Source of the DNA: Mytilus trossulus | Lineage: Eukaryota | Length of the DNA: 64,000 nucleotides | NCBI RefSeq assembly: GCF_036588685.1 | Contig: NC_086376.1 | Span: 83,329,014-83,393,013 of the forward strand | Direction: 5' to 3' | Part shown: piece after piece, positions 9,814-57,110 of the stretch | Layout of the letters: every line of letters begins with the position of its first letter | Numbering within the stretch: the stretch's first letter is position 1 | Translations under genes and position numbers: made by a program | The notes under the pieces: generated by a model | Told to the model about the DNA's origin: nothing | The model's input: the letters and a program-made list of their open reading frames with translations, nothing else | The model's database searches: none

Positions 9814-9819
9814 TTTATT
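9814..9819 (-). promoter_or_regulatory. AATAAA polyadenylation signal overlapping the TEP1-like stop codon.
   Basis: The minus strand reads GGCAAATAAACAG, so the TAA stop lies inside AATAAA. Confidence 0.4.
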
Positions 9820-9955
9820 TGCCTCCACTCCAGGTCAAGTAATGAATGTTACCCAATTCATCTCCACAGGCAAGGGAGACAACTGAATATGGATTGTGTA
9901 AAACTTTCACAATTGTCATTGTGGTAACTGGTGCTGGACAGAAGAATAAACCAAC
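9815..9955 (-). CDS. TEP1: TEP1-like last coding exon (VGLFFCPAPVTTMTIVKVLHNPYSVVSLACGDELGNIHYLTWSGGK*), stop TAA at 9815-9817.
   Basis: tttatag acceptor. Phase 0 follows exon 54. The stop codon is followed by the 3'UTR. Confidence 0.75.
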   Translation of the reverse strand, partial: VGLFFCPAPVTTMTIVKVLHNPYSVVSLACGDELGNIHYLTWSGGK

Positions 9956-10284
9956 CTATAAAAGAATCATGCAATCAGTTATTAACAAATGCAAACAAGT
10001 ACAGTTTATATTCAGTTGGGATAGACATTTATAAAAGGAGGCCCAGTGAGTCTGCAGTGTAAAGACGAGCATGTTCTAAATAAGAAAAAAATATCTTCAA
10101 GTAGCTTCTTTCCAAGTTATATAAAATTTCATGGAGGTTATTCATGTTTTAAAAATGTATGAATTTTGAGACTGTTAAAAATGTTAACTGCCAAAAAAAA
10201 CCAAGTCATTTATCAGTAAAAGTATTTAAAAATATTTTCTTTACAAAATTTGCTTCAATTAGTTTTTGTTAATTATAAACTTAC

Positions 10285-10386
10285 CTGCTTCATATCTTTA
10301 TCCCATACTTTGACTGTTCTGTCTTGAGAAGCAGTGAAAATAAGATCATCTGTCATATCTACTGCTGTCACTGCTCCACCATGTAC
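10285..10386 (-). CDS. TEP1: TEP1-like exon 54, WD40 (VHGGAVTAVDMTDDLIFTASQDRTVKVWDKDMKQ).
   Basis: ttctag acceptor, CAG|gtaagt donor. Confidence 0.85.
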
Positions 10387-10590
10387 CTAGAAAATAAACA
10401 AAATTGAATAATGAAAAAAAATAATAACAATAATCTAAAAAAAGAACCTCAAGTTCAATGTGAATGGTAAATAATTTTGAAGAGTAAAGTCTCTAGATTA
10501 CTGGATGTATAAGGAAGAATGAGCGGTCAAAACTACATACTAAATAATGTAATTCTGAGCATGAATATTTTTAAAAATGTGTACACCTAC

Positions 10591-10761
10591 CCTTGTTGTA
10601 GATTTAGAGTTGGTTATCTGCCCTTTAGAATCTCCAATTATCTGTAGTTTGCCATCAACAGCCATGCTGTGTACCCAAACTGGTTGTTTCTTGTGCATTA
10701 ATACATCTGTGTCAACTCTGTTTGGAATCGAAATCCTGGTTATAACTTTTATGTTGCATTT
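10591..10761 (-). CDS. TEP1: TEP1-like exon 53, WD40 (KCNIKVITRISIPNRVDTDVLMHKKQPVWVHSMAVDGKLQIIGDSKGQITNSKSTTR).
   Basis: ctttcag acceptor, AGG|gtaggt donor. Confidence 0.8.
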
Positions 10762-10947
10762 CTGAAAGAACAGAAAGAATGATATACAGTGTTCTTGAAC
10801 CAGGTTTTCAATCAACCTAAAAATTAATACCATTATTTATAAATGGGGATTATGGAAAACAGATGATGCACCTGCTTGTATATTATGTTATAAGCCATTT
10901 TTAAATTAAAAAAAATATAATACATGTTGAAGAATGATTCTAATTTA

Positions 10948-13559
10948 AACCAGATGCTCCGCAGGGCGTAGCTTTATACAACCGCAGAGGTTGAACCCTG
11001 AACGGTTGGGGCAAGTATGGACATAACATTCAAGCTGGATTCAGCTCTAAATTTGGATTGTGATTAAATAGTTGACACAGCATAGGTTTCTGACACAGAA
11101 TGAATGTGTTCTAATGAAATTAAATTTTTTGTTTTCTCTTAGAGCAATTCACTATGCTGTTGAATATTATTCCTCTCAAAAAAATGTTTGAAGAAATTTT
11201 CTTTTTATTTATGAAATTTCAAATGAGAAAATTGAACCCATTTTTTTTAATCACATCCCCCTTTCCCTTATTCCAAAACTAATCTCAATTAAAATTTCTA
11301 ATGGAGTTTGCAACAATTACTACTCATTTAAATACATCATAAAATATTAAGATGTAAAAAAACTGCTTTTTTATCAGTTGGTAGTAAAAAGTGAATATAC
11401 ATTGTATATTGTATATATAACAAAGATTTAAGTTGATTCTGGACAAAGAAAGATAACTCCAAATAAAAAAAAATCTTACAATTAGATATTTCTTGCTTAC
11501 TATTCTGGACAAAGAAAGATAACTCTAATTAAAAACAAAATTGCTATTTCACAATATTTTGCAATAAGATATTTCTTGCCATTGCGCAATACTGTGCAAT
11601 TGAAAAGACTTGCTATTGCACAAAACTTAATATAATTATTTTAGATCCTGATTTGGACCAACTTGAAAACTGGGTCCATAATCAACCAGATGCTCCGCAG
11701 GGCGTAGCTTTATACGACCGCAGAGGTTGAACCCTGAACGGTTGGGGCAAGTATGGACACAACATTCAAGCTGGATTCCACTCTAAATTTGGATTGTGAT
11801 TAAATAGTTGACACAGCATAGGTTTCTGACACAGAATGAATGTATTCAAATGAACTTAAAATTTTTTGTTTTCTCTTAGAGCAATTCACTATGCTGTTGA
11901 ATATTAATCCTCTCAAAAAAATGTTTGAAGAAATTTTCTTTTTATTTATGAAATTTCAAATGAGAAAAATTGAACCCAATTTTTTATTCACATCCCCCTT
12001 TCCCTTATTCCAAAACTAATTTCAATTAAAATATTCTAATGGAGTTTGCAACAATTACTACTCATTTAAATACACCATAAAATATTAAGATGTAAAAAAA
12101 CTGCTTGTTATCACTGAATGGTAAAGATTATTTAAATTTACCAGTTGGTAGTAAAAAGTGAATATACATTGTATATTGTATATAACAAAGATTTAAGTTG
12201 ATTCTGGACAAAGAACGATAACTCCAATTAAAAAAAATTCTTGCAGATATTTCTTGCTTACTATACTGGACAAAGAAAGATAACTCTTAATTAAAAAAAA
12301 ATTTGCTATTTCACAATATTGTGAAATTAGATATTTCTTGCCATTGCACAATACTGTGCAATTGAAAAGACTTGCTATTGCACAATACTTAATATAATAA
12401 TTTTAGATCCTGATTTGGACCAACTTGAAAACTGGGCCCATAATCAAAAATCTAAGTACATGTTTAGATTCAGCATATCAAAGAGGCCCAAGAATTTAAT
12501 TTTTGTTAAAATCAAACTTAGTTTAATTTTGGACCCTTTGCACTTTAATTTAGACCAATTTTAAAACTGGGCCAAAAATTAAGAATCTACATACACAGTT
12601 AGATTTGGCATATCAAAGAACCCCAATTATTCAATTTTTGATGAAATCAAACAATGTTTAATTTTGGACCTCGATTTGGGCCAACTTGAAAACTGGGCCA
12701 ATAATCAAAAATCTAAGTACATTTTTAGATTCAGCATATCAAAGAACCCCAAGGTTTCAATTTTTGTTAAAATCAAACTAAGTTTAATTTTGGACCCTTT
12801 GGACCTTAATGTAGACCAATTTGAAAACGGGACCAAAAATTAAGAATATACATACACAGTTAGATTCTGCATATTAAAGAACCCCAATTATTCAATTTTG
12901 ATGAAATCAAGCAAAGTTTAATTTTGGACCCTTTGGGCCCCTTTTTCCTTAACTGTTGGGACCAAAACTCCCAAAATCAATACCAACCTTCCTTTTATAG
13001 TCATAAACCTTATGTTTAAATTTCATAGATTTCTATTTACTTATACTAACGCTATGGTGCGAAAACCAAGAAAAATGCTTATTTGGGTCCCTTTTTGGCC
13101 CCTTATTCCTAAACTGTTGGGACCGAAACTCCCAAAATCAATACCAACCTTCCTTTTGTGGTCATAAACATTGTGTTTAAATTTCATTGATTTCTATTCA
13201 CTTTAACTAAAGTTATTGTGCGAAAACCAAAAATAATGCTTATTTGGGCCCTTTTTTGGCCCCTAATTCCTAAACTGTTGAAACCAAAACTCCCAAAATC
13301 AATCCCAACCTTTCTTTTGTGGTCATAAACCTTGTGTCAAAATTTCATAGATTTCTATTAACTTAAACTAAAGTTATAGTGCGAAAACCAAGAAAATGCT
13401 TATTTGGGCCCTTTTTGGCCCCTAATTCCTAAAATGTTGGGACCAAAACTCCCAAAATCAATACCAGCCTTCCTTTTATGGTCATAAACCTTGTGTTAAA
13501 ATTTCATAGATTTCTATTCACTTTTACTAAAGTTAGAGTGCGAATACTAAAAGTATTCG

Positions 13560-13603
<44 letters not shown>

Positions 13604-14851
13604 CAACGTGATAGCAATATACGACGAAAATTTTTTCAAAATTTGCGGTCGTATAAAAATCTAAGTACATGTTTGGATTCAGCATATCAAAGAACCCCAA
13701 ATTATCAATTTTTGTTAAAATCAAACTAAGTTTAATTTTGGACCCTTTGGACTTTAATGTAGACCAATTTGAAAACAAGACCAAAAATGAGGAATCTACA
13801 TACACAGTTAGATTTGGCATATCAAAGAACCCCATTTATTCAATTTTTGATGAAATCAAACAAAGTTTAATTTTGGACCCCGATTTGGATCAACTTGAAA
13901 ACTGGGCCGATAATCAAGAATCTAAGTACATTTTTAGATTCAGCATATCAAAGAACCCAACCGATTAATTTTTTGTCAAAATCAAACGAAGTTTAATTTT
14001 GGACCCTTTGGACCTTAATGTAGACCAATTTGAAAACGGGACCAAAAGTTAAAAATCTACATACACAGTTAGATTCGGCATATCAAAGAACCCCATTTAT
14101 TCAATTTTGATGAAATCAAACAAAGTTTAATTTTGGACCTTTTGGGCCCCTTATTCCTTAACTGTTGGGATTAAAACTCCCAAAATCATTACCAACCTTC
14201 CTTTTATGGTCTTAACCTTGTGTTTCAATTTCAGAGATTTCTATTTACTTATACTAAAGTTATGGTGCGAAAACCAAGAAAATGTTTATTTGGGTCCCTT
14301 TTTGGCCCCTAATTCCTAAACTGTTCGGACCTAAACTCCCAAAATCAATACCAACCTTCCTTTTGTGGTCATAAACATTGTGTTCAAATTTCATTATTTT
14401 CTATTTACTGAAACTAAAGTTATTGTGCGAAAACCAAGAATAATGCTTATTTGGGCCCTTTTTTGGCCCCTAATTCCTACACTGTTGAAACCAAAACTCC
14501 CAAAATCAATCCCAACCTTTCTTTTGTGGTCATAAACCTTGTGTCAAAATTTCATAGATTTCTATTAACTTAAACTAAAGTTATAGTGCGAAAACCAAGA
14601 AAATGCTTATTTGGGCCCTTTTTGGCCCCTAATTCCTAAAATGTTGGGACCAAAACTCCCAAAATCAATACCAACCTTCCTTTTGTGGTCATAAACCTTG
14701 TGATAAAATTTTATAGATTTATATTCACTTTTACTAAAGTTAAAGTGCGAAAACTAAAAGTATTCGGACGACGACGACGACGACGACGACGACGCCAAAG
14801 TGATAGCAATATACGACGAAAATTTTTTCAAAATTTGCGGTCGTATAAAAA
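10948..14851 (+). mobile_element. Composite non-autonomous element, interpreted as Helitron/Helentron (HINE)-like. Its 5' module of about 740 bp occurs twice in tandem. The module is followed by an array of a 120-bp 'A' sub-repeat, an array of a 125-bp 'B' sub-repeat, a (GACGAC)n microsatellite and a hairpin tail. The whole 3' block (A sub-repeats, B sub-repeats, microsatellite and tail) is duplicated.
   Basis: The 5' start aaccagatgctccgcagggcgtagctttatacgaccgcag is conserved in three copies. The 3' tail ...(gacgac)n gccaacgtgatagcaatatacgacgaaaattttttcaaaatttgcggtcgtataaaaa contains an imperfect hairpin (atacgacg...cgtcgtat). The subterminal inverted 13-mer is TTTATACGACCGC. Confidence 0.5.
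13561..13603 (+). repeat. (GACGAC)n microsatellite inside the composite element.
   Basis: About 14 perfect GAC units. The same microsatellite recurs at 14767-14795 and 36594-36615. It also produces the poly-Arg and poly-Val artefact ORFs in the ORF track. Confidence 0.9.
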
Positions 14852-15100
14852 TCTGTTTGGAAAAATTTGATTTGAAAAGGACTATATACAATTTAAAATC
14901 AACTCAACATAATCATACCAGGTTATTATCATATTTTCAAAAAAATATTTGAAGAAAATAAAGTTGTTGAAAAGCAGGGAAAATCTCATTCATGACTTAA
15001 CATCAACAACACATTTCTTTTTGAGCTTTCACAACAATACTTGTTTCAACCTGCATGTAGATAAATTATAAAACAGCATGTACTTTGTATTAAGCTTTAC

Positions 15101-15224
15101 CTTTTCCATTGTAACTTTTATTTCAATGACCATTCCACTAGCAGTGGTAGCATACAGACATCCAGGCTTAGATTTTGTCTGATACAAACTTAATATCCAG
15201 TCGGCTTTATCCACTACACATTTT
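15101..15224 (-). CDS. TEP1: TEP1-like exon 52 (KCVVDKADWILSLYQTKSKPGCLYATTASGMVIEIKVTMEK).
   Basis: gttacag acceptor, AAG|gtaaag donor. Confidence 0.8.
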
Positions 15225-15769
15225 CTGTAACATTATAAAATTAAATTTAAATTGATTAAATGCCACCTTCAGCACATATAACTATAGCTATATCATGGTG
15301 GCTTGTTTAATTGGTTGAGGAAGCAATAGTACTCATAGAATATAACTTTGGCAGAAGAAAAAAACAATCATTTTCCATAAAGATCTTAGTCAATCCATTT
15401 TGCCAAAGCAGGGTCAGAAATAACAACCTCTGTAGTGAGTTTTGGCCCCTAAACCACAGAGTGAAATGAAAACAAAATTAGTTACAGCTACTTTAGACTT
15501 TTGATTATGAGAGATTGCATCTTTGCTCTTCTTCTGATAGCATTTTACAACAGTGTAAAATCTCATCAATATATGTCCATATGCTTATAAGATGCACTAA
15601 CAAGGCACAAGGTATGATTGACAGAATGGCAGATGGACAAATAGATGGACAAGCTGATTCATGTATTCACATGAAACTTTGGTTAAGGTATTAAAATAAA
15701 AGACAGAATGGACATAAATGCTGTTATCAAACTGAATAGTAGAACCAAGTATTCTCAAATTGTAACAGT

Positions 15770-16657
15770 CAGGGTTTCCGCTGGCGGTCGCCATTTTCGC
15801 AATTTGCGAAAAAAAATATAACTGTGGCGATTAAAATTCGTCATTGGCGATAGAATTTGGCGAAAGAAATATATAACGATTTATTTTCAGCCATCTTGTT
15901 TATTTACTTTTTTTCCGGTTTTTCTGACTTTACCGATCAGACAAAACTCGGAATTCATCTTGAACTCGTTAAGATTTGATAGAAAATCAATAATCAGCTG
16001 ATTGCATTCATAGCTATCGACATCAAAGGACTAATTAATAAAGGTGTTGATTATATGATATGACAAAATGATATTGTTAAATGGCTTCTGTCACATGTCA
16101 CAAAAGGGATTTATTAACCACTTTGTGACGCACGTGTTTGAATCAAAATTTTTACGCTTCCTCTCCTTCTTTTAATGATAGTCCAGAAAAGAAAATTGTT
16201 GTTATGACGAAAACTGTTCAAAAGCAAGAAAAGTCTCTGATTTAAAACTTTATCATTCAACTTTCATATAGGTAATTGATTTGAATTGGAACTTCAAAGT
16301 TGTTTCAGTTACACTTGTGTTTAAAGCATATTGTTTTACTTATTTACGATGGTATAGAAAAGAAAACTGTCGTTATGAAGAAATATATTCAAAAGGTTGG
16401 CATGAGAATAACCCTTCAATGTAATGACTACAACTTACATGAGCGATCAATTCCAAGTGATAAGATGCTTTGTTTTGTTGTAAAAAACACTTCCTATTTA
16501 GGGGGGGGGCGGGGCTTGAAAAAAGTGAAAATTTGAAGAAGAAAAAATATATGTGTATATGTGTGTTACTTGGCGAAAAAAATAATAAAGTGGCGAAAAA
16601 TATATTGTTTTGGCGAAAGAGGTGGCGAAAAAAATAATTGACCCAGGGGAAACCCTG
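15770..16657. mobile_element. hAT-superfamily MITE (non-autonomous, 888 bp).
   Basis: Terminal inverted repeats are CAGGGTTTCC(G/C)CTGG. The 8-bp target-site duplication is gtaacagt / gtaacatt. Subterminal GGCGAAA/TTCGCC repeats are present. There is no ORF. Confidence 0.7.
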
Positions 16658-16755
16658 GTAACATTCAAATACTCATTTGTTTGGGTATGTATATTATTGT
16701 TTGGTTTTTGTGTACTGGTAATTGACATTTCTGTTTTATCCAATAATAATCTTAC

Positions 16756-16893
16756 CTCTCAAACTGTTTGTTGTTCTTATAAACAGTTACTTCCCCTTTC
16801 CAATTGCCAGAGAAGACATGAGCTGAGGTTGTAGATTGAAGCAGACAAGTCACAGGTGTTGAACTGTTTTCTATTACAGTGGATTTCTCAACT
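16756..16893 (-). CDS. TEP1: TEP1-like exon 51 (VEKSTVIENSSTPVTCLLQSTTSAHVFSGNWKGEVTVYKNNKQFE).
   Basis: atttcag acceptor, GAG|gtaaga donor. Confidence 0.75.
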
Positions 16894-17737
16894 CTGAAAT
16901 ATAGGACAAACTCTATATTTTGTAGATAAGCATTAGCATAGCAAAGTTTTTGTTCTATGTACAATTTCATGGCAAACAAAAATTATTGAATAATCTGTAC
17001 AATATAAAAAAGAAGATGTGGTATGATTGCCAATCAGACAATTCTCCATAAGAGACCAAAATTACACAGACATTAACAACTATGGGTCACTGTACGACCT
17101 TCAATAATGAGCAAAGTGCATACTGCAAAAACAATTAATCGTGATTTACACTAATGAGCTTCGGTGTGTATAAAGTGAGGATTAAGACTTCCGTTGATGA
17201 TCACCTAAAAACTACTCAATTCAGCATCTTTTATCTTGTTGTATTTTCTTTTGAAAAGAAAGAGTGAGATAAAACAAAATAAATAGAAATCAAAATTTTC
17301 TTAAATCTCTTGTGTCCGAGAATAAACAATTTTGTCAGCTATAACCAACCTGAATTACGAAACTATCGATTGGAAAAGCCATAGGATTTTTTTTAATTGA
17401 AAAAATTGAAAAGTAAAAATAATGTCATTATAATAATAAAAGACTGTGACAAACAAATACATCGATCTGATACTAAAATATTGATCCCCTTGCCATATTC
17501 CCCCCCGGATTTATTTTAGCTTTACCAAGTTAAACAAGAGTTGTGTCCCTTAGATTGTAAAACTTCTGGTGTTCGTTTGAGTCGAACTACGTGTATCTCG
17601 AAATATTTCTCTGGTCCGGCTGTATGTGTAAGATGAGTTACACTTGTAAATACTATTGCAAAGGGAAATAACTAAATAATAGACTAGAATAAAATAGAAA
17701 TCAGGTCTACATTTAATTTCGTCATTGTAAGACATAC

Positions 17738-17856
17738 CTCTTAATGTTCATGCCTTCTCTTGTGACAGACCAAGAAACAATTTGTCCATCTTCACCTGCT
17801 GTTATCATAGTATTGTCAATTTGGAATAAAGCAGCTGTAACAGAATACTTGGATAC
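17738..17856 (-). CDS. TEP1: TEP1-like exon 50, WD40 (VSKYSVTAALFQIDNTMITAGEDGQIVSWSVTREGMNIK).
   Basis: gtcacag acceptor, GAG|gtatgt donor. Confidence 0.8.
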
Positions 17857-18088
17857 CTGTGACAAACGAAATAACATATAATTGCAAATGAAAAACATAG
17901 TACATTATCAGCTTACATTAAAACTAGATTACTGAAATTTCTCATTAATCAGTCACAACAAAACTGAGAAAATATGTGCCTTGATTTAAAAAAAAACTAA
18001 AATAAAAAAAGAATCCTTTGAATTATTTTGAGGTTTTACATGCTATTTTTGGACTTACATACAACTTTATTCAATAAGATAAGTTTAC

Positions 18089-18152
18089 CTGCATCGTTCT
18101 CTCACAAACAAATACACCATTGTTTATGCTCCAGAACTTGACAACACCATCC
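18089..18152 (-). CDS. TEP1: TEP1-like exon 49, WD40 (DGVVKFWSINNGVFVCERTMQ).
   Basis: ttgaag acceptor, CAG|gtaaac donor. Confidence 0.75.
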
Positions 18153-18764
18153 CTTCAATAGAATAAAACAACATGTTAAACTAAAAAAAAAAAATGATTA
18201 ACAAAAGTATATTTATGAAATTAGGAATGCATCAAATAACAAATCTTACTTCTGGTTTTGTTATATACTGGTGATATTTAATTCCAAAAACATATGTATT
18301 AAATCATTTCTGATGATATTCACAGATAATGAAATATTTTATCTGATAAAATTGACAATAGCCCCAATAGTTTTCTTTAGGAAAGTACACTTTTTTTTAT
18401 TTGGAAGACAAGTGCTATTGAGAGGACAGAAATATGGTAAATCTTCAACAAAAAGAGAAGGAAATTGTTCCCCATATTCTTTTAAAAGTCTTTCTTGTGA
18501 ACAAAAATTCTATCATAGGAGAGATCAACAATAATAATATAAATAATTTAATGTAGTAATGAATGAGATCTTTTTTAAAATCACTTTTCTCTCAATTACA
18601 GAAGACAATTTTACCCTCATTAAATTTGGACATTCTAAACAACTGGCTGAACATTATGTATTAATGAGCACCAAACAATTGGAGAAAATTAAGTAAGATA
18701 TTTCATTGGATTGTATTCTTGTGTAAAACTATCTTTTCTATTTCAATCTATGCTGATCTCATAC

Positions 18765-18976
18765 CTGCTTCCAGTCAGTAATCCTGTTCCATTTTCTATA
18801 CAACTGACAAATGTCACTGATCCATTATGTCCTGCATCTGATGGTGTTGTTGACAACTCAGGAGCCCACAGACGGACAGACTTGTCTAGACTGCTTGTAC
18901 ACAATTTTCCCTGTGAGTCAGATGATACACTGAGTACTCTGTCATCGTGTCCAGACATACTGGCCAGCTCATTAGC
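18765..18976 (-). CDS. TEP1: TEP1-like exon 48, two WD40 repeats (ANELASMSGHDDRVLSVSSDSQGKLCTSSLDKSVRLWAPELSTTPSDAGHNGSVTFVSCIENGTGLLTGS).
   Basis: tgttag acceptor, CAG|gtatga donor. Confidence 0.85.
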
Positions 18977-19359
18977 CTAACAAACAAATAATACAGATGT
19001 ACATACAAACCATAACTAGGCAATTATAAATAATAAACACTTTGAATTAAGCTTTGGAAAAAACAAATTAAATTCAAAATCATGAGAGATAAAAATAGAT
19101 GATCCAAACCAAATTTAGAACACATCTAAGAGATTTTTTGCTTTAAAGTTCTACAAATTCTGTCAAGAATTGTACCCATGAGAATGCTTACAAGATAAGA
19201 CGCACAATGGATGAAAGCACCATATTACTATATCCACTTAACATCATTGCATTAAGGACAAAAACACACAAACCCAATCTGATGTTCTGAATAAAGTTCC
19301 ACCTCTGCTTAAGAAACCCTAACACCTTTAAGATTGAGAAAAATGCAAATTGTTTTTAC

Positions 19360-19508
19360 CTGCAATGGTTGCCATACCCTGACTGTACCATCATCTCCAC
19401 AAGTAGCTACCAGTACATCATCCATCTTTACACCTGGACGTTTGGATTTCTTTGTCTTCTTAGCAGCCTCTGCTGTTTCTACCATATCTGCCCACGATTT
19501 GTTTGCAT
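19360..19508 (-). CDS. TEP1: TEP1-like exon 47, WD40 (ANKSWADMVETAEAAKKTKKSKRPGVKMDDVLVATCGDDGTVRVWQPLQ).
   Basis: tttaaag acceptor, CAG|gtaaaa donor. Confidence 0.8.
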
Positions 19509-20226
19509 CTTTAAAAAAATTGACAAATTGGTATGCATTACAGCTTCTTGTCATTAAGAGAATTTTGTGTAAGTCTAAAGGAATTCTGTTAGATGGTTTT
19601 CAATGAAAATTTGATTGACAATGTGCGACACAAATGCTGAAACAGCTGAAATCCTGGTATTGCCCCAGATGGACACTGCCAGATGACAAAATAATGTGGT
19701 TTCAGTGAAATTTATTATTGGTTGATTTCGAGCTATCTTCACATCTTTATAATAATATTGCTTGCACTCGGACCATGACAACATCTATGTTTGTTCTTAC
19801 ATAATTCAGTGCCTTAAAACGATACACTGTTATGATTGAAAAATCAAGTTTGCAAAAAATTAAAGAAAAAAATTCTGAAACAAAGTGAATAAATATGTAT
19901 ACTGAAAAGAAGAATACATTTCTTTACATTTAGTTTGTTATTTATAATACAATATTGTCAATTATATCAGAAATTTTCATGCTGTTTATGTTTTTGACAT
20001 AATGGCATGACATACCAGGATAAGGTTCGCAAAAAAACAACAAAAAAACTTGTATTCTTTAATGGCATTATTTTTATTCAGCATTTCCTTAAATGACAAT
20101 AACTTCCTATACACTGTTGTTCATTGCTAAACAATCTCAATAAGAAAGGATGCAAGGATTCCTAAATTTTAAAAAAAGAAATGTTTCTTGAGATCCCTGG
20201 ACAAGCGGAAGTGTTAAAATATTTAC

Positions 20227-20383
20227 CATCTTCTTCCTCTTCAGTGTCATCCTTGCTTGTTTTAACAATCATATCACACCCATTTACTCTCTGTGTATGT
20301 CCATACAGGGTTGTAATCTCTGTACCTTTCTGTGACCAAACTTTGACAGCTCCATCACTACTGCAGGACACTATACATCCATA
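20227..20383 (-). CDS. TEP1: TEP1-like exon 46, WD40 (YGCIVSCSSDGAVKVWSQKGTEITTLYGHTQRVNGCDMIVKTSKDDTEEEED).
   Basis: tctgtag acceptor, ATG|gtaaat donor. Confidence 0.85.
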
Positions 20384-20917: not shown

Positions 20918-21025
20918 ACTATAGGAGATAGCATTAATTCCAGCCATGTGACCTGTTAGTGTGGATTTCTCTGTTCCTGTGGCAGTATCCCAAACCTTTA
21001 AGTTGAAATCAACGGAAGAAGTCAC
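20918..21025 (-). CDS. TEP1: TEP1-like exon 45, WD40 (VTSSVDFNLKVWDTATGTEKSTLTGHMAGINAISYS).
   Basis: ttttag acceptor, AGT|gtaagt donor. Confidence 0.85.
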
Positions 21026-21498: not shown

Positions 21499-21615
21499 TA
21501 TGAAGTCTGCTATATTTGACCATTGACATCCAGTTATCCAGTCTTTATGACAATCACTCATCACATTCATAAGAAGTGGTTCTGTTTCCCAGGTCACCTG
21601 GTAAATTCTTATACT
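21499..21615 (-). CDS. TEP1: TEP1-like exon 44 (SIRIYQVTWETEPLLMNVMSDCHKDWITGCQWSNIADFI).
   Basis: tatcag acceptor, ATA|gtaagt donor. Confidence 0.75.
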
Positions 21616-21996: not shown

Positions 21997-22102
21997 TGCA
22001 TCCCTGCTTGCTGTTGCCAATAATGAGCCTTCACTGTTAAAAGTACAGCTGGTTACCGGTCCTACATGGCCTGATAAAGTGGAATACACTTTGAGCTTAT
22101 TT
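21997..22102 (-). CDS. TEP1: TEP1-like exon 43, WD40 (NKLKVYSTLSGHVGPVTSCTFNSEGSLLATASRDA).
   Basis: ttgcag acceptor, GCA|gtaagt donor. Confidence 0.85.
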
Positions 22103-22621: not shown

Positions 22622-22779
22622 TTCTTTGATAAATCTTTCTCCTTTGGTGCTGGAAACAATGTACAAGTAAAATCTTCTGATCCTACAGCCATCAATGTTT
22701 TGGTCAGTGCTAAACACAGTACAGGTTTGGTGAAAGTTGTCAGTCTAATACCTCCTACAGATTCTTTTGTACTTGTTAT
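22622..22779 (-). CDS. TEP1: TEP1-like exon 42 (ITSTKESVGGIRLTTFTKPVLCLALTKTLMAVGSEDFTCTLFPAPKEKDLSK).
   Basis: The ORF track shows an open frame here. atttcag acceptor, GAA|gtaagc donor. Confidence 0.75.
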
Positions 22780-23176: not shown

Positions 23177-23280
23177 CAGTCATTGTATTATCATCTGATC
23201 CTGCTGCTACCATGCCATCTCCAACATATTTGATACACCTTACTGATGCTGTATGGAGTTTATTGTCAAAAATTTCCCAT
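23177..23280 (-). CDS. TEP1: TEP1-like exon 41, WD40 (WEIFDNKLHTASVRCIKYVGDGMVAAGSDDNTMT).
   Basis: ttgtag acceptor, ACT|gtaagt donor. Confidence 0.8.
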
Positions 23281-23708
23281 CCTACAATAATTAAGAAATA
23301 ATGACTATTTTTCAACTTAATTGATTACATACAATTGATTATAAAAATTAATTGAAATATCTAATTGCTGTCTGTATGAAGAAGTTTGATTATCTCCCTT
23401 GTTACACATGCAACTTGTCAACCGATGAAGTCAATTATTAATTTCAGTTGCAAAAAGTTTTGATTGAGAACAGGGATTTGTGCATACCTTCTGCTCAAGA
23501 TTCCTTTAAAAGGCAATAACATAATGTGATAATTACGACAATCTTAGTTGATAGACATCCACTTTTATCAATTGTCTGAGTTTTCCATCAAGCCTCAGGA
23601 AGAAGCTCTTAAAATAAAACTTCACAAGCTGATCATTTTGGTGTTCTCCCTCCTCAGAAGGCAGAAATTGTATATCATAAACTATTTTTTAAAAGATTTC
23701 AATTTTAC

Positions 23709-23856
23709 CTGTCATAACGTCAAAAGCTCTGATATTTCCACTGTGGTATCCAACAAATACAACATCACAATCTGGGTGAAGTGCTACTGACATGGCAGCT
23801 CCATGTTCCTCCATACCAATACATTGGACTGGTTTCCCAAGGTTCCCAGACCATAC
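23709..23856 (-). CDS. TEP1: TEP1-like exon 40, WD40 (VWSGNLGKPVQCIGMEEHGAAMSVALHPDCDVVFVGYHSGNIRAFDVMT).
   Basis: ttgaag acceptor, CAG|gtaaaa donor. Confidence 0.75.
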
Positions 23857-24080: not shown

Positions 24081-24179
24081 CTTGACTTTATGGTCATCAC
24101 TAACTGTTATCAATTCTTTACCGGATGGAGAGAACGTCAGTTTGTTGATAGGTAGCGAGTGACCCTGGATATTACCAAC
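24081..24179 (-). CDS. TEP1: TEP1-like exon 39, WD40 (VGNIQGHSLPINKLTFSPSGKELITVSDDHKVK).
   Basis: ccttcag acceptor, AAG|gtaagg donor. Confidence 0.85.
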
Positions 24180-24541: not shown

Positions 24542-24661
24542 CTGTGTTCCATTGAATGCTGACCAGAGTTTAACATCACCATCTAAGGAGGCTGAGGCAA
24601 TGTGACGTCCTGATGGAGAGTAGGCTACATCTCTCACTGATGTCTTGTGTCCTCGTAACAC
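24542..24661 (-). CDS. TEP1: TEP1-like exon 38, WD40 (VLRGHKTSVRDVAYSPSGRHIASASLDGDVKLWSAFNGTQ).
   Basis: Canonical WD40 GH...WD repeat. ctttcag acceptor, CAG|gtaaac donor. Confidence 0.85.
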
Positions 24662-25350: not shown

Positions 25351-25456
25351 TGCTTTTCTCTTCCTGTGAAATATATCCCAGATCTTTATTGTGGCATCCC
25401 AACTTCCTGTAACGATCAGCTGACCTTCTGGGTGGAAGTCAACACAGTTCACTTGG
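25351..25456 (-). CDS. TEP1: TEP1-like exon 37, WD40 (QVNCVDFHPEGQLIVTGSWDATIKIWDIFHRKRKA).
   Basis: atttcag acceptor, GCA|gtatgt donor. Confidence 0.8.
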
Positions 25457-49673: not shown

Positions 49674-50220
49674 CTCTGGGTACCTATTAAATAATAATTG
49701 AGGCAATGATTAAAATTATTTTTTCTCCATCAGTTTCAGCAAAGATAAGTGATAGAACACAATAAAACATTACATCGTAAAGTAGCTGTATGTTCACTCT
49801 GATACACCAGGAACAAAACAGGGAAAAATCTATTGGGAAAATCATTTTCAAGATATATATTTTTGATAAAATTTCATTTTATTTTTTGTTAAAATATGCA
49901 GTTTTACAAAGATATTAGCTTCATAAAAAGAATTTTTAAACCTCAATTTTTCTAGAGTCATGGATTTAAACTCTTTGGACAAACATTTAATCAACACACA
50001 TAGTTTACAAATTCACATTGTTATTTTCAGCAATATAAACAAGTCAGTAGTGGATTTTATGACTATCTGTAAAATTTTAACCTTTTATTTTACATGCCCT
50101 TAATGATCATGCACAAAATTTAAATAGTTCCTAGAAACTACGACTTGACACGGGCATATTATACAGATTATTTTATTAACTTTTAGATGCACAGACTAAG
50201 TCATTTTTTAAGTGTACTTA

Positions 50221-50355
50221 CTTTTTACCGATAAGAGCCATGACATGGTATACTGGCTCTGTGATATGTAGTTTTCTGATCAGCTGTTTCAGTGAAAAAG
50301 ATGTCTTCTCAATCTCTTCTTTCGATTCTTTATCATCATATATAACATCTGATAT
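50221..50355 (-). CDS. TEP1: TEP1-like exon 7, TROVE (ISDVIYDDKESKEEIEKTSFSLKQLIRKLHITEPVYHVMALIGKK).
   Basis: Matches Ro60 '...LLRLSHLKP...' region. cttag acceptor, AAG|gtaagt donor. Confidence 0.8.
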
Positions 50356-51085
50356 CTAAGAATTAAAAACAAATAAATAATGTATGTTAGTTAGACATCT
50401 ACCCATCAACACATACACAAAATGACTGCTAGATGTGAACATATGAACAATACAATATTACAAGCACTTAATTCTTCGGAGACTAAACAAATTGTGAACA
50501 AATTAACCTGAGACTAATCAATGGTCTACCATAACATAAAATTCCCACAATGGGGAGCAACTTTTAGATAACGGATGACGTTCGTTTCATAAGATTCTGA
50601 AAAAATCTACTATCTTGGTAAAAAAATTGAATAAGAAATAGATAATAATAGTACATTTCTTGGAATAATACAAAATTTTGTTATCTTTAATTTTTGTTGG
50701 AATGTAGTGCCACTGTCTGCACAGTTCAGTTTATTGAAAAATTCTTTTATGGCCTTCACAGGAATAAAGATTTAGATTTTGTAGTATCTATACAAATAAA
50801 AGAAAGAACTTGATCCTGTGTGATGTTACATGTATTAGGTTTAAATGGAAATGCATGATTTTTTTTAATTTATATCTTGAAAATATTTAACCCTTCTATT
50901 TACATGTTTGTCCTGAATAATAATGTTTAATTAAAAACCCAATAAAAAATTAGGTTGCAATAAATATACATGTTATTGATTTGTAAACAACTCACTATTT
51001 AAATGAGAAAAAATGGTTGCATCCTAGCATGTATTTTTTTTTAAATTTTAAAAAGTTGGTAGACATACAATATTTATGAAATTAC

Positions 51086-51339
51086 CTGTCTTTTCATCTT
51101 GGATTCTTCTTCCTCATCTGAAGAATCTGAAGAATCTGATGAAATGTCATCTGGCTGTGGGGGTACAAAACTGCCAAATCTAGCTCCCCTACCTCCTCTA
51201 GTAAAACCTCCTCTACCACGACCTCTACCTCCTCTGCCACCTCTACCGCCTCTCACAGCTGATCCATCATCTTCTTTCTCCTTATTTTTTCGTTCTTTCT
51301 TCTTTTTCTTCTTCCTAGAACTTTCTTTATTATACTTAG
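51086..51339 (-). CDS. TEP1: TEP1-like exon 6. A Lys-rich stretch is followed by an RGG box (RGGRGGRGGRGRGRGGFTRGGRGARFG) and an acidic Ser-rich stretch (DSSDSSDEEEE), all inserted within the TROVE region.
   Basis: tttcag acceptor, CAG|gtaatt donor. Phase links exon 5 (AKY...) to exon 7. Confidence 0.7.
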
Positions 51340-52090
51340 CTGAAAGTTGAATTCAGAAATAAATCTTTCTTGAAATACTCTATGCTCATTTTTAGAAGTT
51401 TAGGCATTACATGAATATTTGTCAAAATCCTTATATTGAGCATCGTGAAATTTAAACATGATTAATAGAACTTTATAAACTTAATGTATTTCAACAGGAT
51501 AACTAGACAGAAGCGGCCCCCTCTTTCCCCCACATTCCAAAGCACATAAATACAGAGAATTTGAAGAAATACAACAGAGCACTAATGTTACTAAGTGCTC
51601 TGTTGTATTTATTACTCTGTTTATTAATTAGTAATAATGGAGTTAATAGCACATATTTCATTGCTAGTACATTTTTGTACCAGTAGAAGTACCATTGAAA
51701 TATTCACAGCAATAGAAGTTTCTCTTCTCTTCATTCTTCTTTGTACTTAAGTTTAATACTTGGATGCCTTTAGCTCTAGAATAGACACTATCCAGCATTA
51801 ATATGAATGCCCTCTGTCTAACTATAAATAGCAATTTTCTCTAACAAAATATAGATTATCTCCTTTTTTTACCCAATTTTCAACCATCTGAAATAGACAG
51901 TTTATTCAAACAGTTTTAAATGTTCTAAACAGTCTAGCATACATGTACATGTGACATTTTAACTGTCAAACAAGATATAAGGCAGTCACTGAAATGGCCG
52001 TCTATTGCCATCAGAGTTCAAAAATTAATGTTCTGAAAATGTAACAGAAATTATGCAATATACATTCTAAAACCAAAATGCTTTTCTTAC

Positions 52091-52187
52091 CAAGCTGGTA
52101 TTCATCAAAGTCAGGAAATTTAGTCATCATAACTCTTCTTAGCGCTGAGGGTAATGCCCCTTGTGTCAAATGTCTGTCATGGAAAGC
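52091..52187 (-). CDS. TEP1: TEP1-like exon 5, TROVE (AFHDRHLTQGALPSALRRVMMTKFPDFDEYQL).
   Basis: Open frame, tag|G acceptor, TTG|gtaag donor, phase consistent. Confidence 0.8.
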
Positions 52188-53295
52188 CTAAAGAAATAAA
52201 ACACAAGACATGTATGTTAAACCCTGTGCACTATGAAACTGAAATATGATAAAACAGTTTCTCCAATTCTTACTCATTTTATCTCTTTTATTTTTTATTT
52301 AATCAACATATATGGCTTGTTTGTAATTGATCTCAATTCTTCATTGTTCTTAATTTGGATATATATGATTTAGGACATCAAATTATCAGCGAAACCCTCT
52401 TTTTAAATTTAAAAATTTAACTGTCTCAAGTTGATAAATATTGAATCACACTCGATGCAGTGGTAAAATCTATATTTATACACAGTTTATATAAATGTAC
52501 ATTTGAATTAAAACATCAGTGTACATGTTTTACTATCAATTTAATATCACAACAATATATGATATAATTTCCAAAATACAGATTAAATTGAAGTTTTGTA
52601 AATTCTTTATGGTTACGATCTACTAAATATTAGTTCAAGTTTATAAAAAAAACTTTCATGCATAGATAATTTCTGGCATTAACTCAGGCTTTGGAATCAA
52701 CATATCAAAGTTTTTGATTTGGTGTTTCAAGCATAAATTTTGTACTCCAAGTACTGAGTAAAGTTTTATGACTCCAGCCACAGGTCTCTTCTGGAGAGTT
52801 GTCTCGTTGGCAATTATATCACAATTTCTTGTTTTTGTACATCTTTTCTTTAATGGATTTCATTTATTTTTAAAAACCTTTCTTCTAACTCCATTGAACT
52901 CTTTAAATTTAGAATTTAGTGGCAAATTCAGGTGGAACTTAGAATTGGTTAAATGGATTTTTTGGTTTAACATTCTCAAAATTTCAATCCTGACAATAAC
53001 CCTACAATTTCAAACAATAGATCAGCCACTGTTTTCTTATGCAAGAGCATGTTTTGGTCAATCTTTAAGAGCAAACTGACAACAATTATCAATTAATTCT
53101 GTACTTAAAACATGTTCGAGTAGAACAATCAATAGCATCGACATACTTATTATTTAGATCAAATGCAACTGACAAAATAACAAAATTAAGCACCATGAAA
53201 ATAATTGAGTCCCTTGAGTTAATATTGCATCACAATACTGACATATCTGTGGTATTACCAAATTATCTCCCTTTGGTAACCATACCAGAACTAAC

Positions 53296-53457
53296 CTGAT
53301 ATATTTCAGCTACTTCTATCCAGTCTGATGGTAAACTTATAGAGGCACAGTAGTATTTCTTTAAGAATGGTCTGCACAAATCAATATTAGCTGCCATGGC
53401 TAACAGAAAGTTTGCTGTTGTTCTTATGTTTAGTTGTTTTCTGGTATATAGTGCAAC
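53296..53457 (-). CDS. TEP1: TEP1-like exon 4, TROVE (VALYTRKQLNIRTTANFLLAMAANIDLCRPFLKKYYCASISLPSDWIEVAEIYQ).
   Basis: Strong similarity to Ro60 'LAVYARKELNIRSTANF...'. Canonical splice sites. Confidence 0.85.
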
Positions 53458-53665
53458 CTATAAATAAAAAATTATCAACTTAAGCAATAGTGCAGGCTAA
53501 AAAAGATTTTTTTTATGAAATCATTCCATCCAAATACTCTTTCAAGATTAACATATTTGTATCCTCATAATCATGATAAACCATCATTAAAATTCACGTT
53601 TTTTACAGCAATATCCCCCATTGAGACTCTGTGGGAGATAAAGAATGTATCAAACATGTACCTAC

Positions 53666-53800
53666 CTTCAATACAAACTCTGGATCATAAACAACCAACT
53701 TCTTTGCCATGTTGGATAGTGCTATTCTAGTATTGTCTTCTGAATTTCTAAAATTAGGTTGGCAAATAAGTGATCCACTTACAGCATTGATGAAACCAAG
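53666..53800 (-). CDS. TEP1: TEP1-like exon 3, start of the TROVE module (...MAKKLVVYDPEFVLK).
   Basis: Ro60/TROVE-like sequence, phase 0 to 0, with an aag acceptor and an AAG|gtaggt donor. Confidence 0.75.
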
Positions 53801-54195
53801 CTTAAATAATAAAATAATAAATACATGTTATTCAATGATTTTTTCCATCACGTAGAAAGCAAAATTATAATAGAATTACTTAAACATTTCCTGTCAATAT
53901 GTGTTTATAAACCAATTTGTTGAATATGTTCATTTTTCAGGCAACTGACTGTAAATAAATGAATTTAAAATCTTTAATGAAACATACAACTCAAAGTGAT
54001 TGAGCTACAATGTACAACTTTAACATTGTCAATTTGACAGGTAGTTCAGTATCTACCAACTTAACCTGACATTTATAAAATCCCTAAATATTTAAGAAGT
54101 CAGTGGATTATAATGTCAATGATCCTTATGATTATGTATGACAAATTCAAAAAAAGGCCTGATTTTGGCACTAGATACCGAGAAGAAATTAATAC

Positions 54196-54941
54196 CTTTA
54201 TGCCATTCACATCATGTAATGGTTTAGAAATAGGTTTCAAACTTGGATCCTGTGCTGGTGATACGAAGTCCGGGATATCTATTCCTTTATCTTTAATGTC
54301 TATTTCTAATTTATACTGTGGTGGTTTGACTTCATATCTTGTTATGGTAGTTACTTTCCCATCACTGTTCACCATCTTCTTTTTTGATTTGACTGCAGAG
54401 CGATCATTACTCTTTCTTTTTGTTGTCTCCTTTTTATCTGAGCTCAATTGCCTTGATAATGAACTTTGAGTTGAGTAACTGCTTGAACTAAAGGATGTGA
54501 CTGGTTCTATTTTTATTGTGACGAGGGGTGAAGTTGACTTCAGTAAATTAGATTGTAAATTTTCCTTAAACATGGAAGACGTTTTGTCAGTTCTAGTATC
54601 ATTACTTCTTAATGAGCTAAGTTTTGATTGGTCAGGCTTTGTCAGAAGACTGCTTGTTAAATTGGAGGATGGGCCAAGTCTACTACTTAAACCTGATGAC
54701 AGACCAAGCCTACTAGACAAATTGGATGATGTGGTCAAACTGCTGGTCAAATTTGATGTCAATCCTGGTCTTCCTGACAATGAAAAACTTGACTTTGTTG
54801 GTCCAAGTAATGTATTGTGTAACGCTGAAGATGTAGTATTTCCGCCAATGTTTGAAGAAGTTTGGTCAAGCCTACTTCTTCCAGATGTTGTCACAGAAGA
54901 TGGCTTCTCTGTTTTTACCAATCCTGCGGTTAGGCCTAAAC
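54196..54941 (-). CDS. TEP1: TEP1-like exon 2, a 746-nt Ser/Thr/Leu-rich exon with short degenerate repeats (e.g. SSRLGLSSGLSSRLGPSSNLTSSL). It may correspond to the TEP1 N-terminal repeat region.
   Basis: The reading frame is open across the exon. It has a ttttttttag acceptor and an AAG|gtatta donor. Phase is consistent with exons 1 and 3. Confidence 0.65.
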
Positions 54942-55606
54942 CTAAAAAAAAACAGTTGTATTACATTTTTCATTCTTTATGAAATGGTAGTGTTTTTTTA
55001 GATTCCCACATAAAAGTTTGTTATGTAAATTATTCATTCTTTGTGTACATATTCATGACCTGAACACATAAAATTATCTAATTTTTCAAAAAGTGCAACA
55101 ATCAAGATCTGGCAAGTGTTAATATGTTGTTCTATCAGGTACAGAAATTTCCTAATTTTTTTTTATGTTTGTAAATTTGAGTGTCAAAACTTACAATTTT
55201 TTGTACATATACCATTAAACAGTAAGCATGTGGCACGTGGAGTTCTTTTATACAAGACCAGTTCTCTGTCCTAATACATGATTATGTAAGTAACTTCAAA
55301 TATAATGGAATAATTATACATAATTTGGAGATATTGGCAGATCTTCCAAATTCTCAGTTTAACATGCACACAACTTGTCTAGAATCATAGCATTTCATTG
55401 CTCAATTTAGAGCTTACTTTAAGAAACAATGTATAGACACCCAACTATGGTTGAAGACAGTGTGTTGACATGTATGTGTCTTATTGAGTTTTTGTGTTGT
55501 TAGGTATATGTATTATTGACTTTTATCTCACATCTCCTTTTATTCATCAAAACCTTCTTAGGTTGATTCATGCTGTTAAAACTTTTATTGTAAAACTAAA
55601 ACATAC

Positions 55607-55721
55607 CAGTTTGTGATGTCAATTCTGTCTTCAGTGACCATTTTGACATCAATGATGAACTAGTTGATAACATCGACTTGTTGTCTCCCATTAGGAGTTT
55701 GTTTCTGTCAGTTGACGACAT
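55607..55721 (-). CDS. TEP1: TEP1-like coding exon 1 (MSSTDRNKLLMGDNKSMLSTSSSLMSKWSLKTELTSQT). The exon itself runs to about 55730 and includes 9 nt of 5'UTR.
   Basis: The ATG is preceded by a tttcag acceptor. The donor is CTG|gtatg. The phase (1-nt carry) matches the next exon. Confidence 0.6.
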
Positions 55722-56944
55722 TTTCTATTTCTGAAACAGAAAATTTACAAATAATATTCTATGAATATAGATTATAGTCATTATTTACAATACTTATTAT
55801 GTATGATCAACTAAGTAATTAATATATCATAAGCCTTTTCTATTTGTTGTTGATAAGTTTGTGCTAATAAAATATATTTGTATTAATATTTGTTCTGTTT
55901 TTAAATATAACTGTTACCAAAGAAACAGCGCTGTATTCCCTGCTCTACAGCCATTTAGATGTTGTATCATAAATAAATAAATGAAGAATGCATCCATGCA
56001 TATATATATATATGGGACACAGATTAATTTTCCCTGATGAATAACGACGAATCACAGTAAAATTTTAACCAATATATATAACCTTAGAATAATGTTAACA
56101 GAAATTGACTGATTTTAAATGCATATAGGCATACGGTGCAGTCCTGTGTATCTGCACACTCAGACTTATGACTTCACTTTTTTCAACTGATAAAACAAAT
56201 AAATGGATGATATTGTGTTAACACATTCATAACATACTTTTATTTTATAAAATATTCTGTTGGTATGGTTTCAACCTCAAGATTTTGTGAAATATGTGTC
56301 CAAAATTAGGGAAACCCCTGTTCTGGGAATTCCTCCAGTGATTTCATGCATGCCTTCCAACAAAATTATTTCAATCTGATATAATTTTGACTTATAAAAA
56401 AACACATTTTATCTCAAGATGTATTTTTTTTAAAGGAAATTGGCCTTGTTAATCATGTGATTGCAGTATTATTTAACTCTTGAACTTATCAATTCTATTC
56501 TTTTTAATCCCTTTCGGAAGGCTAAAACAATAACAAGAACAATTTCATTTTTGCTAATTGACTATATGACTAAATCAGCTAATGTGCGGTATCAACAGCC
56601 GTGCAGACACCAGGGACTCCACTGTACATATACCTATCCTCCTGGTCTAGTATAATAAATTTGAGGGAAACTTGTTATCTTATGAAGTTATGTGCTTATT
56701 GACATTTATCCATAACTTATTTCTTGTATAAATATGTTCTTTTAAATTGAAAAGGGTGATGCTACTATACTTCTTCAAGTCTAACTCAACACTTTTCAAT
56801 AGTCAACAAACAAGAAAAGATACTCACCCACTACAACATCAACTGTAAATATATAGCTAAATCAGTATTAAATGTGCTTCAGTAGTACAATTTTAAACTA
56901 AAACATCAAAACAGCTACTCCTATAAAGAGCATATCATATTTAC

Positions 56945-57110
56945 CTGGTTAGAAGAATCAGGAAAATCGGTATTTCACAACGATTTCACCATCATTGCTT
57001 GTGCTGACAGGACATTTTCCTAAACCAAAAGTCGTAGTGCAAACAAAACATTCGGGTCACTCCGGACCTGGCATTTGTTGGATGAAACAAGCCGAGAAGC
57101 TCCGAGTGAA
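56945..57110 (-). other. Putative non-coding first exon (5'UTR) of the TEP1-like gene. The donor sits at about 56945 and the TSS is not defined.
   Basis: On the minus strand there is a CCAG|gtaaat donor. A locally GC-richer segment lies upstream. The next exon starts with a tttcag acceptor 9 nt before the ATG. Confidence 0.25.

Follow-up and report, generated by a model that had tools for sequence, protein, structure and literature searches.

TEP1 (telomerase protein component 1) of vertebrates, a subunit of vault and telomerase ribonucleoproteins, combines, in order, a TROVE domain, a vWA-like region assigned to DUF5920, a DUF4062 NADase, a NACHT-type NTPase, a helical domain and about 21 WD40 blades. 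The same order of parts, with the vWA-like and NACHT-type assignments provisional, is encoded in the 64,000-nucleotide (nt) window of contig NC_086376.1 analysed here (the whole stretch from 83,329,014 to 83,393,013, forward strand; all coordinates below are window positions). We put at about 0.93 the probability that the window contains a single intact minus-strand gene, a mollusc and most likely bivalve ortholog of TEP1, with 55 coding exons and a product of 2708 amino acids (aa). Human TEP1 has about 2630 aa.

The DUF4062 domain has been described as a TIR-like NADase, also named NIR, and human TEP1, either purified or in reconstituted vaults, cleaves NAD+ and NADP+ in a manner that needs E1008 and is lowered by mutation of R908 or R976 (bioRxiv 10.64898/2026.05.01.722283; 10.64898/2026.09.04.749371). 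The catalytic glutamate is conserved across eukaryotic NIR domains (bioRxiv 10.64898/2026.09.04.749371). Unlike TEP1, purified full-length NWD1 and NWD2 show no NADase activity, and it is from the same literature that the label 'vWA' for the region following TROVE is taken (bioRxiv 10.64898/2026.05.01.722283).

Several other families share part of this architecture. NWD1/2 resemble the present product in their DUF4062-NACHT-helical-WD40 arrangement and APAF1 in its NTPase-helical-WD40 arrangement, with both HTH_NWD1 and APAF1_C matching here, but these proteins are without TROVE, and APAF1 has a CARD in place of DUF4062. Ro60 has TROVE followed by a vWA-like region, but at only ∼540 aa it has no room for NADase, NTPase or WD40 parts, all of which it lacks; the match of our model to solved TROVE-domain proteins is no better than E=8.5e-5 over ∼80 residues. 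Bacterial DUF4062/NIR defence proteins (Swarozyc, Avs-NIR, Vulcan, Vesta), likened here by description only, possess a homologous TIR-like NADase with a catalytic Glu, often fused to STAND modules; unlike TEP1 they are prokaryotic, act in phage-triggered abortive infection and are found without a TROVE or WD40 context. Closest are the lophotrochozoan TEP1s of Saccostrea cucullata ('telomerase component p80-like'), Solemya velum, Lingula anatina, Octopus sinensis and Elysia marginata, which are colinear with the model without exon-sized gaps; their identity to it is 41–59%, and the best overall value, 57–59%, is too low for any of them to belong to the same species. Their entries are fragmentary or split, unlike the uninterrupted model here.

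Gene model and domain content

The window is eukaryotic in character (GC ∼31%), and its minus-strand stop-to-stop frames carry, from ∼55.7 kb down to 9.8 kb, dozens of short segments resembling TROVE, DUF4062, P-loop NTPase and WD40 sequences. These frames, together with tblastn searches using TEP1 homologues, place the coding exons on the minus strand with the 5′ end at high coordinates; the first-pass annotation had the exons right but left their strand unsaid. The tblastn high-scoring segment pairs are strictly colinear on this strand, with per-exon identity to bivalves of up to 86%.

The curated model runs from the ATG at 55721 to the TAA at 9817–9815, and no stop interrupts its 8127 nt (2708 codons). 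Each of the 54 introns is bounded by GT and AG, and their phases (28, 9 and 17 in phases 0, 1 and 2) are mutually compatible; their lengths are 185–4339 nt (median 478). The coding exons cover 45.9 kb, or 47.3 kb if a putative exon in the 5′ untranslated region (UTR) is real. This independent rebuild agrees with the about 55 phase-consistent exons and about 2,700 aa proposed initially.

Exons were chained by a dynamic programme that combined codon bias, homology, splice-site position weight matrices and checks for stops in split codons. The automatic chain depended on the weights chosen (63–65 exons, 2413–3078 aa), with ∼50 exons common to every run; the final model consists of these run-stable exons, and the other junctions were settled by hand from tables of candidate splice sites and homologue alignments. 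The automatic output read through weak donors (for example 49183–48978 and 37167–36782) and inserted micro-exons, both of which were dropped; the micro-exons rejected lie at 48798, 48420, 44709, 37660, 34369, 28883, 25103, 23490, 22295, 12866 and 12285. Also set aside were donor 30079, which creates a 7-aa insertion with no counterpart in Octopus (the gtgagt donor at 30100 was used), acceptor 37529 (in favour of 37506 for exon 21) and acceptor 24731, which gives the wrong phase where 24661 restores it in exon 38. The resulting exons are listed below with their main support ('exon chain' denoting the dynamic programme).

Putative non-coding 5′ exon, 56945–57110, minus: donor 56944 pairs with acceptor 55732
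Exon 1, 55607–55721, minus: ATG 55721; probable start of the exon 55732 with 11 nt of UTR; donor gtatgt
Exon 2, 54196–54935, minus: Ser-rich (22% Ser), of low complexity, degenerate S-R-L-G-x-S-S-x-L repeats; open frame; AG/GT; phase 1 to 0; 3′ part aligns to Solemya (P0001) and Saccostrea (P0005)
Exon 3, 53666–53800, minus: TROVE start; tblastn 61–67% to P0001/P0005; phase 0 to 0
Exon 4, 53296–53457, minus: TROVE; tblastn 80–86%; phase 0 to 0
Exon 5, 52091–52187, minus: TROVE; tblastn 62%; phase 0 to 1
Exon 6, 51086–51339, minus: K-rich/RGG/acidic-Ser insert in TROVE; phase 1 to 0; its 85 aa fit 80–83 aa left unaligned in P0001/P0005 between the neighbouring exons
Exon 7, 50222–50355, minus: TROVE; tblastn 65–74%; phase 0 to 2
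Exon 8, 49526–49683, minus: TROVE; tblastn 77–81%; phase 2 to 1
Exon 9, 49074–49183, minus: TROVE; donor NE|gtatgt (score 7.8) preferred to read-through; phase 1 to 0
Exon 10, 48157–48247, minus: TROVE; tblastn; phase 0 to 1
Exon 11, 46906–47104, minus: (RG)n-rich insert in TROVE; phase 1 to 2
Exon 12, 46048–46228, minus: TROVE end; tblastn 62–68%; phase 2 to 0
Exon 13, 45345–45491, minus: tblastn 55–56%; phase 0 to 0
Exon 14, 44051–44137, minus: in-frame 87 nt; fits a 29–32 aa homologue gap; no gap of 5 aa or more in the Lingula alignment
Exon 15, 43439–43578, minus: DUF5920; tblastn, Pfam; phase 0 to 2
Exon 16, 42885–42956, minus: DUF5920; tblastn 71–83%; phase 2 to 2
Exon 17, 39774–39932, minus: DUF5920 end and linker; tblastn; phase 2 to 2
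Exon 18, 39412–39588, minus: start of DUF4062/TIR-like NADase, RVFISSTFRDMHGERD, R1007; tblastn 85%; PDB 11gz alignment
Exon 19, 38891–39133, minus: NADase core, R1075, predicted catalytic E1107 (codon 38973–38971); PDB 11gz alignment
Exon 20, 37832–37945, minus: NADase domain; tblastn, PDB 11gz alignment; phase 2 to 2
Exon 21, 37386–37506, minus: NADase domain end; gap-free alignment to human TEP1
Exon 22, 36982–37167, minus: Walker A GKPGTGKS (K1270); open frame, Pfam
Exon 23, 33834–34009, minus: NTPase; tblastn; phase 0 to 2
Exon 24, 33368–33515, minus: Walker B VVIFMDGLD (D1359); open frame
Exon 25, 32551–32727, minus: NTPase; tblastn
Exon 26, 32204–32296, minus: tblastn 71–80%
Exon 27, 31749–31881, minus: winged helix HTH_NWD1; tblastn, Pfam
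Exon 28, 31119–31296, minus: HTH_NWD1; tblastn, Pfam
Exon 29, 30596–30702, minus: tblastn; strongest donor of the gene
Exon 30, 30100–30188, minus: APAF1_C-like helical domain; donor gtgagt at 30100
Exon 31, 29539–29653, minus: helical; exon chain, Pfam
Exon 32, 29085–29190, minus: helical; exon chain, Pfam
Exon 33, 28312–28480, minus: helical end and start of first WD blade; tblastn, repeat hidden Markov model (HMM)
Exon 34, 27464–27559, minus: WD40; tblastn, repeat HMM
Exon 35, 26640–26764, minus: WD40, first 90 nt in a 122-bp tandem repeat; repeat HMM
Exon 36, 25806–25955, minus: WD40; tblastn, repeat HMM
Exon 37, 25351–25456, minus: WD40; repeat HMM
Exon 38, 24542–24661, minus: WD40; acceptor 24661 gives the correct phase
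Exon 39, 24081–24179, minus: WD40; exon chain, repeat HMM
Exon 40, 23709–23856, minus: WD40; exon chain, homologue alignment
Exon 41, 23178–23281, minus: WD40, TEP1 second propeller; exon chain, Pfam
Exon 42, 22622–22779, minus: WD40; exon chain, Pfam
Exon 43, 21997–22102, minus: WD40; exon chain, repeat HMM
Exon 44, 21499–21615, minus: WD40; exon chain, repeat HMM
Exon 45, 20918–21025, minus: WD40; tblastn, repeat HMM
Exon 46, 20227–20383, minus: WD40 and acidic insert; tblastn, repeat HMM
Exon 47, 19360–19508, minus: K-rich insert, WD40; exon chain, repeat HMM
Exon 48, 18765–18976, minus: two WD40; exon chain, repeat HMM
Exon 49, 18089–18152, minus: WD40; exon chain, repeat HMM
Exon 50, 17738–17856, minus: degenerate blade; exon chain, homologue alignment
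Exon 51, 16756–16893, minus: degenerate blade; exon chain, homologue alignment
Exon 52, 15101–15224, minus: degenerate blade; exon chain, homologue alignment; small indels against Elysia at its start
Exon 53, 10591–10761, minus: degenerate blade; exon chain, homologue alignment
Exon 54, 10285–10386, minus: WD40, TEP1 C-terminal propeller; exon chain, Pfam, repeat HMM
Exon 55, 9815–9955, minus: TAA 9817–9815 with overlapping AATAAA; PF25048 match to residue 2704

Of the span 9815–57110 given originally, the stop end holds but the 5′-most ∼1.4 kb is non-coding: coding starts at 55721 or at an in-frame Met 11 or 17. Exon 1 encodes MSSTDRNKLLMGDNKSMLSTSSSLMSKWSLK..., and its SSLMSKWSLK corresponds to the SSL(L/M)SKWSL motif that forms the extreme N-terminus of Saccostrea and Solemya TEP1. 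Since this N-terminal motif is common to both, exon 1 is supported by homology and translation is predicted to begin at Met 1, 11 or 17. A TAG in the same frame precedes the ATG by 6 nt, and position 55732 offers a good acceptor (cag|AAATAGAAAATG). The segment 57110–56945 ends at a good donor, AACCAG|gtaaat (56944); because every ATG inside it meets a stop within the exon, it codes for nothing and is at most a first exon, which we tentatively label a putative untranslated one, its 5′ limit of 57110 being the value given in the first-pass annotation. At the other end the TAA sits in GGCAAATAAACAG, where, as noticed earlier, an AATAAA overlaps the stop; in such AT-rich DNA this says little about where the poly(A) site actually is.

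The spliced protein contains a TROVE domain (PF05731) at residues 288–765 (E=6e-106, 356 bits against a cutoff of 23, profile positions 23–442 of 442), followed by DUF5920 (PF19334; residues 858–973, 39.4 bits against 27, E=6e-10), a family also found in annotated TEP1s, and DUF4062 (PF13271; residues 999–1092, 59.7 bits against 24.7, E=3e-16), the latter bearing out the DUF4062-like module proposed from the motif RVFISSTFRDMHGERD. P-loop NTPase families match at residues 1231–1395, where AAA_22 passes (27.3 bits against 27) and AAA_16 (32.4 against 32.6), NPHP3_N (24.3 against 24.8) and nSTAND1 (20.8 against 27.1) fall below their cutoffs. Downstream are HTH_NWD1 (residues 1487–1602, 34.5 bits against 27), APAF1_C (residues 1634–1737, 37 bits against 22.8) and two TEP1-specific families, Beta-prop_TEP1_2nd (PF25047; 256 bits against 89, 3e-76, best stretch 2071–2292) and Beta-prop_TEP1_C (PF25048; residues 2630–2704, 153 bits against 32, 3e-45), the last ending 4 residues short of the stop. 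WD40 repeats are recognized in 12 stretches by Pfam and as 14 distinct units by a repeat HMM built from the same protein; gaps without matches could hold ∼7 more degenerate blades, giving about 21 in total, so that the earlier count of about 20 was fair. The Ser-rich N-terminal repeat exon described at first pass is exon 2. Exon 6 places a K-rich run, an acidic Ser-rich one and RGG repeats inside TROVE, and exon 11 an (RG)n stretch, all of low complexity; an RG-rich stretch is also present in Solemya at the exon-11 position, and the insert residues are absent from the more distant P0003 and P0011.

Databases were queried with rough concatenations of the N-terminal-half exons and, separately, of the C-terminal-half exons. 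Top matches of the former bear the names telomerase protein component 1 or p80-like and come from Solemya velum, Saccostrea cucullata, Branchiostoma, Lingula, Octopus and many vertebrates. The top match of the latter is Elysia marginata TEP1 (38% identity over 94% of the query), followed mainly by generic WD40 proteins, with TEP1-named entries at ranks 3 and 79 (P0123, P0199) and a Batillaria homologue at rank 120 (P0240). In blastp alignments the model is 57% identical to Solemya (P0001) over residues 239–1189 (980 columns), 59% to Saccostrea (P0005) over 182–420, 54% to Lingula (P0022) over 803–1612 (819 columns, with no gap of 5 aa or more), 37% to Octopus (P0054) over 752–1724, 38% to the single protein P0011 over 509–1877, and 41% to Elysia (P0121) over 1532–2704 (1251 columns, both C-termini being reached). 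The alignments to named TEP1s are colinear and overlap to cover residues 182–2704 of 2708, and the primate TEP1 fragment P0015 gives three aligned segments with 35–53% identity. No exon-sized insertions or deletions were seen relative to the homologues, the larger differences being only the RG/RGG inserts of exons 6 and 11 and a few 9–12-aa indels near exons 52–54. A chance match is excluded by the TROVE score together with blastp E=0.0 to three TEP1 homologues over 819–1251 aligned columns each. The locus is an ordinary ortholog, TEP1 being already annotated across molluscs, brachiopods and chordates.

Alternative readings of the locus

Several observations weigh against a single TEP1 gene as modelled. 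The TEP1_N 30-aa repeats (PF05386) have no match in the product at E≤0.01, a difference from vertebrate TEP1, in place of which there is the Ser-rich N-terminus with the SKWSL motif common to other bivalves; since PF05386 is confined, among the database matches, to mammalian proteins (P0015, P0029, P0041), it is not defining for the whole TEP1 family. The vWA-like part claimed alongside TROVE is matched by DUF5920 only, with no hit to the VWA families of Pfam. The NACHT assignment holds in so far as Walker A GKPGTGKS (exon 22) and Walker B VVIFMDGLD (exon 24) are directly readable and related STAND families match, but Pfam NACHT itself remains sub-threshold (17.2 bits against a gathering score of 26.7); PF05729 is among the precomputed annotations of TEP1 homologues from lophotrochozoans and vertebrates. 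Splice junctions, start codon (Met 1, 11 or 17), 5′ UTR exon and poly(A) site have all been predicted from the DNA, the 9–12 aa indels against Elysia near exons 52–54 could mean slightly misplaced splice sites, and the 122-bp repeat at exon 35 could disturb splicing or be an assembly artefact.

Also to be counted here is the Solemya velum locus (GCA_048127485.1, JBHNWI010000006.1:128352176-128416083), annotated as two adjacent same-strand genes 1.1 kb apart, the first encoding 1190 aa (TROVE-DUF5920-DUF4062) and the second 1752 aa with the TEP1 propellers; its N-terminal half alone covers 44 kb. The window could by analogy hold two or more same-strand genes, the first with TROVE, DUF5920 and DUF4062 and the next with NACHT and WD40, and the joining of exons here is itself a prediction. 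We regard this as very unlikely. The frame is continuous through exons 20–23, with compatible phases and no stop, and at the supposed break there is neither an in-frame terminal exon nor a new ATG-initiated one. Single proteins bridge the break (P0022 over residues 803–1612, P0003 over 518–1516, P0011 over 509–1877 and P0054 over 752–1724), and a transcript-derived open reading frame (ORF), P0004, joins the TROVE, DUF4062 and STAND NTPase families. The simplest account of the Solemya split is that it is an artefact of annotation.

More improbable still is the reading of the gene not as the functional ortholog but as a TEP1 paralog peculiar to the lineage, or as a copy in decay though still expressed. 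The copy count covers this window only, and the locus is structurally dynamic: part of exon 35 is present in near-identical tandem copies, and introns have taken up transposable elements. Against both readings, however, stand the 2708 open codons, the intact catalytic and Walker residues, the 54–57% identity to lophotrochozoan TEP1s over ∼800–1000 columns with the frame undisrupted, and the confinement of transposable-element and satellite insertions to introns.

Other family identities fail on domain content: Ro60 is excluded by the NTPase and WD40 parts, the product running ∼1700 residues further with NADase, NTPase and WD40 domains, and NWD1/NWD2 and APAF1 by the strong TROVE domain, APAF1_C being the only APAF1 family matched by Pfam, without CARD or NB-ARC. 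The original choice of TEP1 over NWD1/2 or APAF1 is therefore upheld by TROVE, the TEP1-specific propeller families and colinear closest relatives named TEP1.

Repeats, mobile elements and flanks

At the boundary of intron 34 and exon 35 (26675–27145) a 122-bp unit, consisting of the last 32 nt of the intron and the first 90 nt of the exon, is repeated 3.9 times at 99% identity, either as a very recent duplication or as an assembly artefact. Each copy contains a ttttttag acceptor and an internal ACCAGT|gtatgt site, making in-frame 42-nt pseudo-exons possible; copy 1 has a TGA. A partial copy of the 3′ end of exon 35 lies at 26570–26523. Pseudo-exons of 42–141 nt (acceptors 27130, 27008 and 26886) and this 48-nt copy were rejected, as they would add residues not present in Elysia, P0011 or P0090.

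Intron 16 (2952 nt) is mostly filled by a non-LTR-type reverse-transcriptase ORF of ∼810 codons on the plus strand, antisense to TEP1 (39893–42322), in one frame with a single stop at 41006–41008; Pfam RVT_1 matches both halves. Its closest relatives, at 52–71% identity, are bivalve and ENA sequences: the best matches, at 63–71%, are ENA contigs and a Mytilus trossulus protein (68%, across 60% of the query), and the other named ones, from Dreissena, Mercenaria, Ostrea and Pinctada, lie at 49–55%. Taken with the relatives of TEP1, these indicate a bivalve as the probable source. A composite interspersed element is present in copies 90–95% identical at 35400–36600 (intron 22) and at 12205–13660 and 13655–14850 (intron 52), with a fragment at 11440–11685; it consists of tandem arrays (35-bp, 135/261-bp and ∼160/320-bp units) followed by a (GAC)n microsatellite. 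From resemblance only, we take it to be akin to the satellite-bearing miniature inverted-repeat transposable elements or Helitron-like elements of bivalves.

The Pfam scan of the flanks covered three selected open segments, and Rfam and tRNA scans of the whole window gave no matches.

63784–63999, plus strand, right edge: matches MCM_bind (PF09739; E=5e-19, profile positions 4–54 of 577); probably an MCMBP ortholog's first coding exon, transcribed divergently from TEP1 and ∼6.7 kb from its presumed 5′ end
3–530, minus strand, left edge: 176-aa open segment with reverse-transcriptase-like motifs FDFSTLYTTLPH and GIPMGTNCAPLIADLFLY, no Pfam match at E≤1; probably a degraded retroelement fragment
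1637–2284, plus strand, downstream of the TEP1 3′ end: 213–216-aa open frame, Ser/Lys-rich, no Pfam match; possibly an exon of a neighbouring gene

Predicted NADase competence and function

The 220-residue chain of PDB 11gz ('Telomerase protein component 1') matches model residues 995–1207 at E=1.8e-64. With chain residue 3 taken as human residue 896, all four named positions show the stated residue types: human E1008 corresponds to E1107 (SVTELEM), R908 to R1007 and R976 to R1075, all of which are kept, while R954 is replaced by lysine (K1053). This substitution, like the K/RGG/acidic and (RG)n inserts in TROVE, distinguishes the product from vertebrate TEP1. As the alignment keeps E1107, R1007 and R1075, the mollusc TEP1 is predicted to be NADase-competent.

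By homology to human TEP1, the TROVE and DUF5920 (vWA-like) module would bind small non-coding RNAs such as vault RNA and telomerase RNA. The NACHT-type NTPase, winged helix, APAF1-like helical domain and three WD40 propellers (∼21 blades) may together form an NLR/STAND-type switch and scaffold, which, on the same grounds, would control oligomerisation and hence NADase activity inside the vault particle. Gene structure, domain content, colinearity with TEP1 proteins and the kept catalytic residues are read from the sequence itself; that the mollusc protein is expressed, binds RNA, cleaves NAD and associates with vaults is what we infer, binding of vault or telomerase RNA, residence in vaults and NAD+ hydrolysis having been demonstrated for the human protein only. 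That bivalve TEP1 differs functionally from its vertebrate counterpart, acting as a variable NLR-like NADase sensor and not as a housekeeping vault subunit, seems to us unlikely; if it were so, the lineage-specific RGG/(RG)n and acidic inserts in TROVE might alter the RNA clients, and the exon-35 pseudo-exons could add 14-aa units to the first propeller.

Conservation of the catalytic Glu, and of active-site Arg at two positions out of three, is consistent with an ancestral animal origin of the activity, as the preprints claim, and adds little more to it. The window also yields a full-length, uninterrupted bivalve TEP1 model; among the public entries retrieved, those from molluscs and brachiopods are fragmentary or split.

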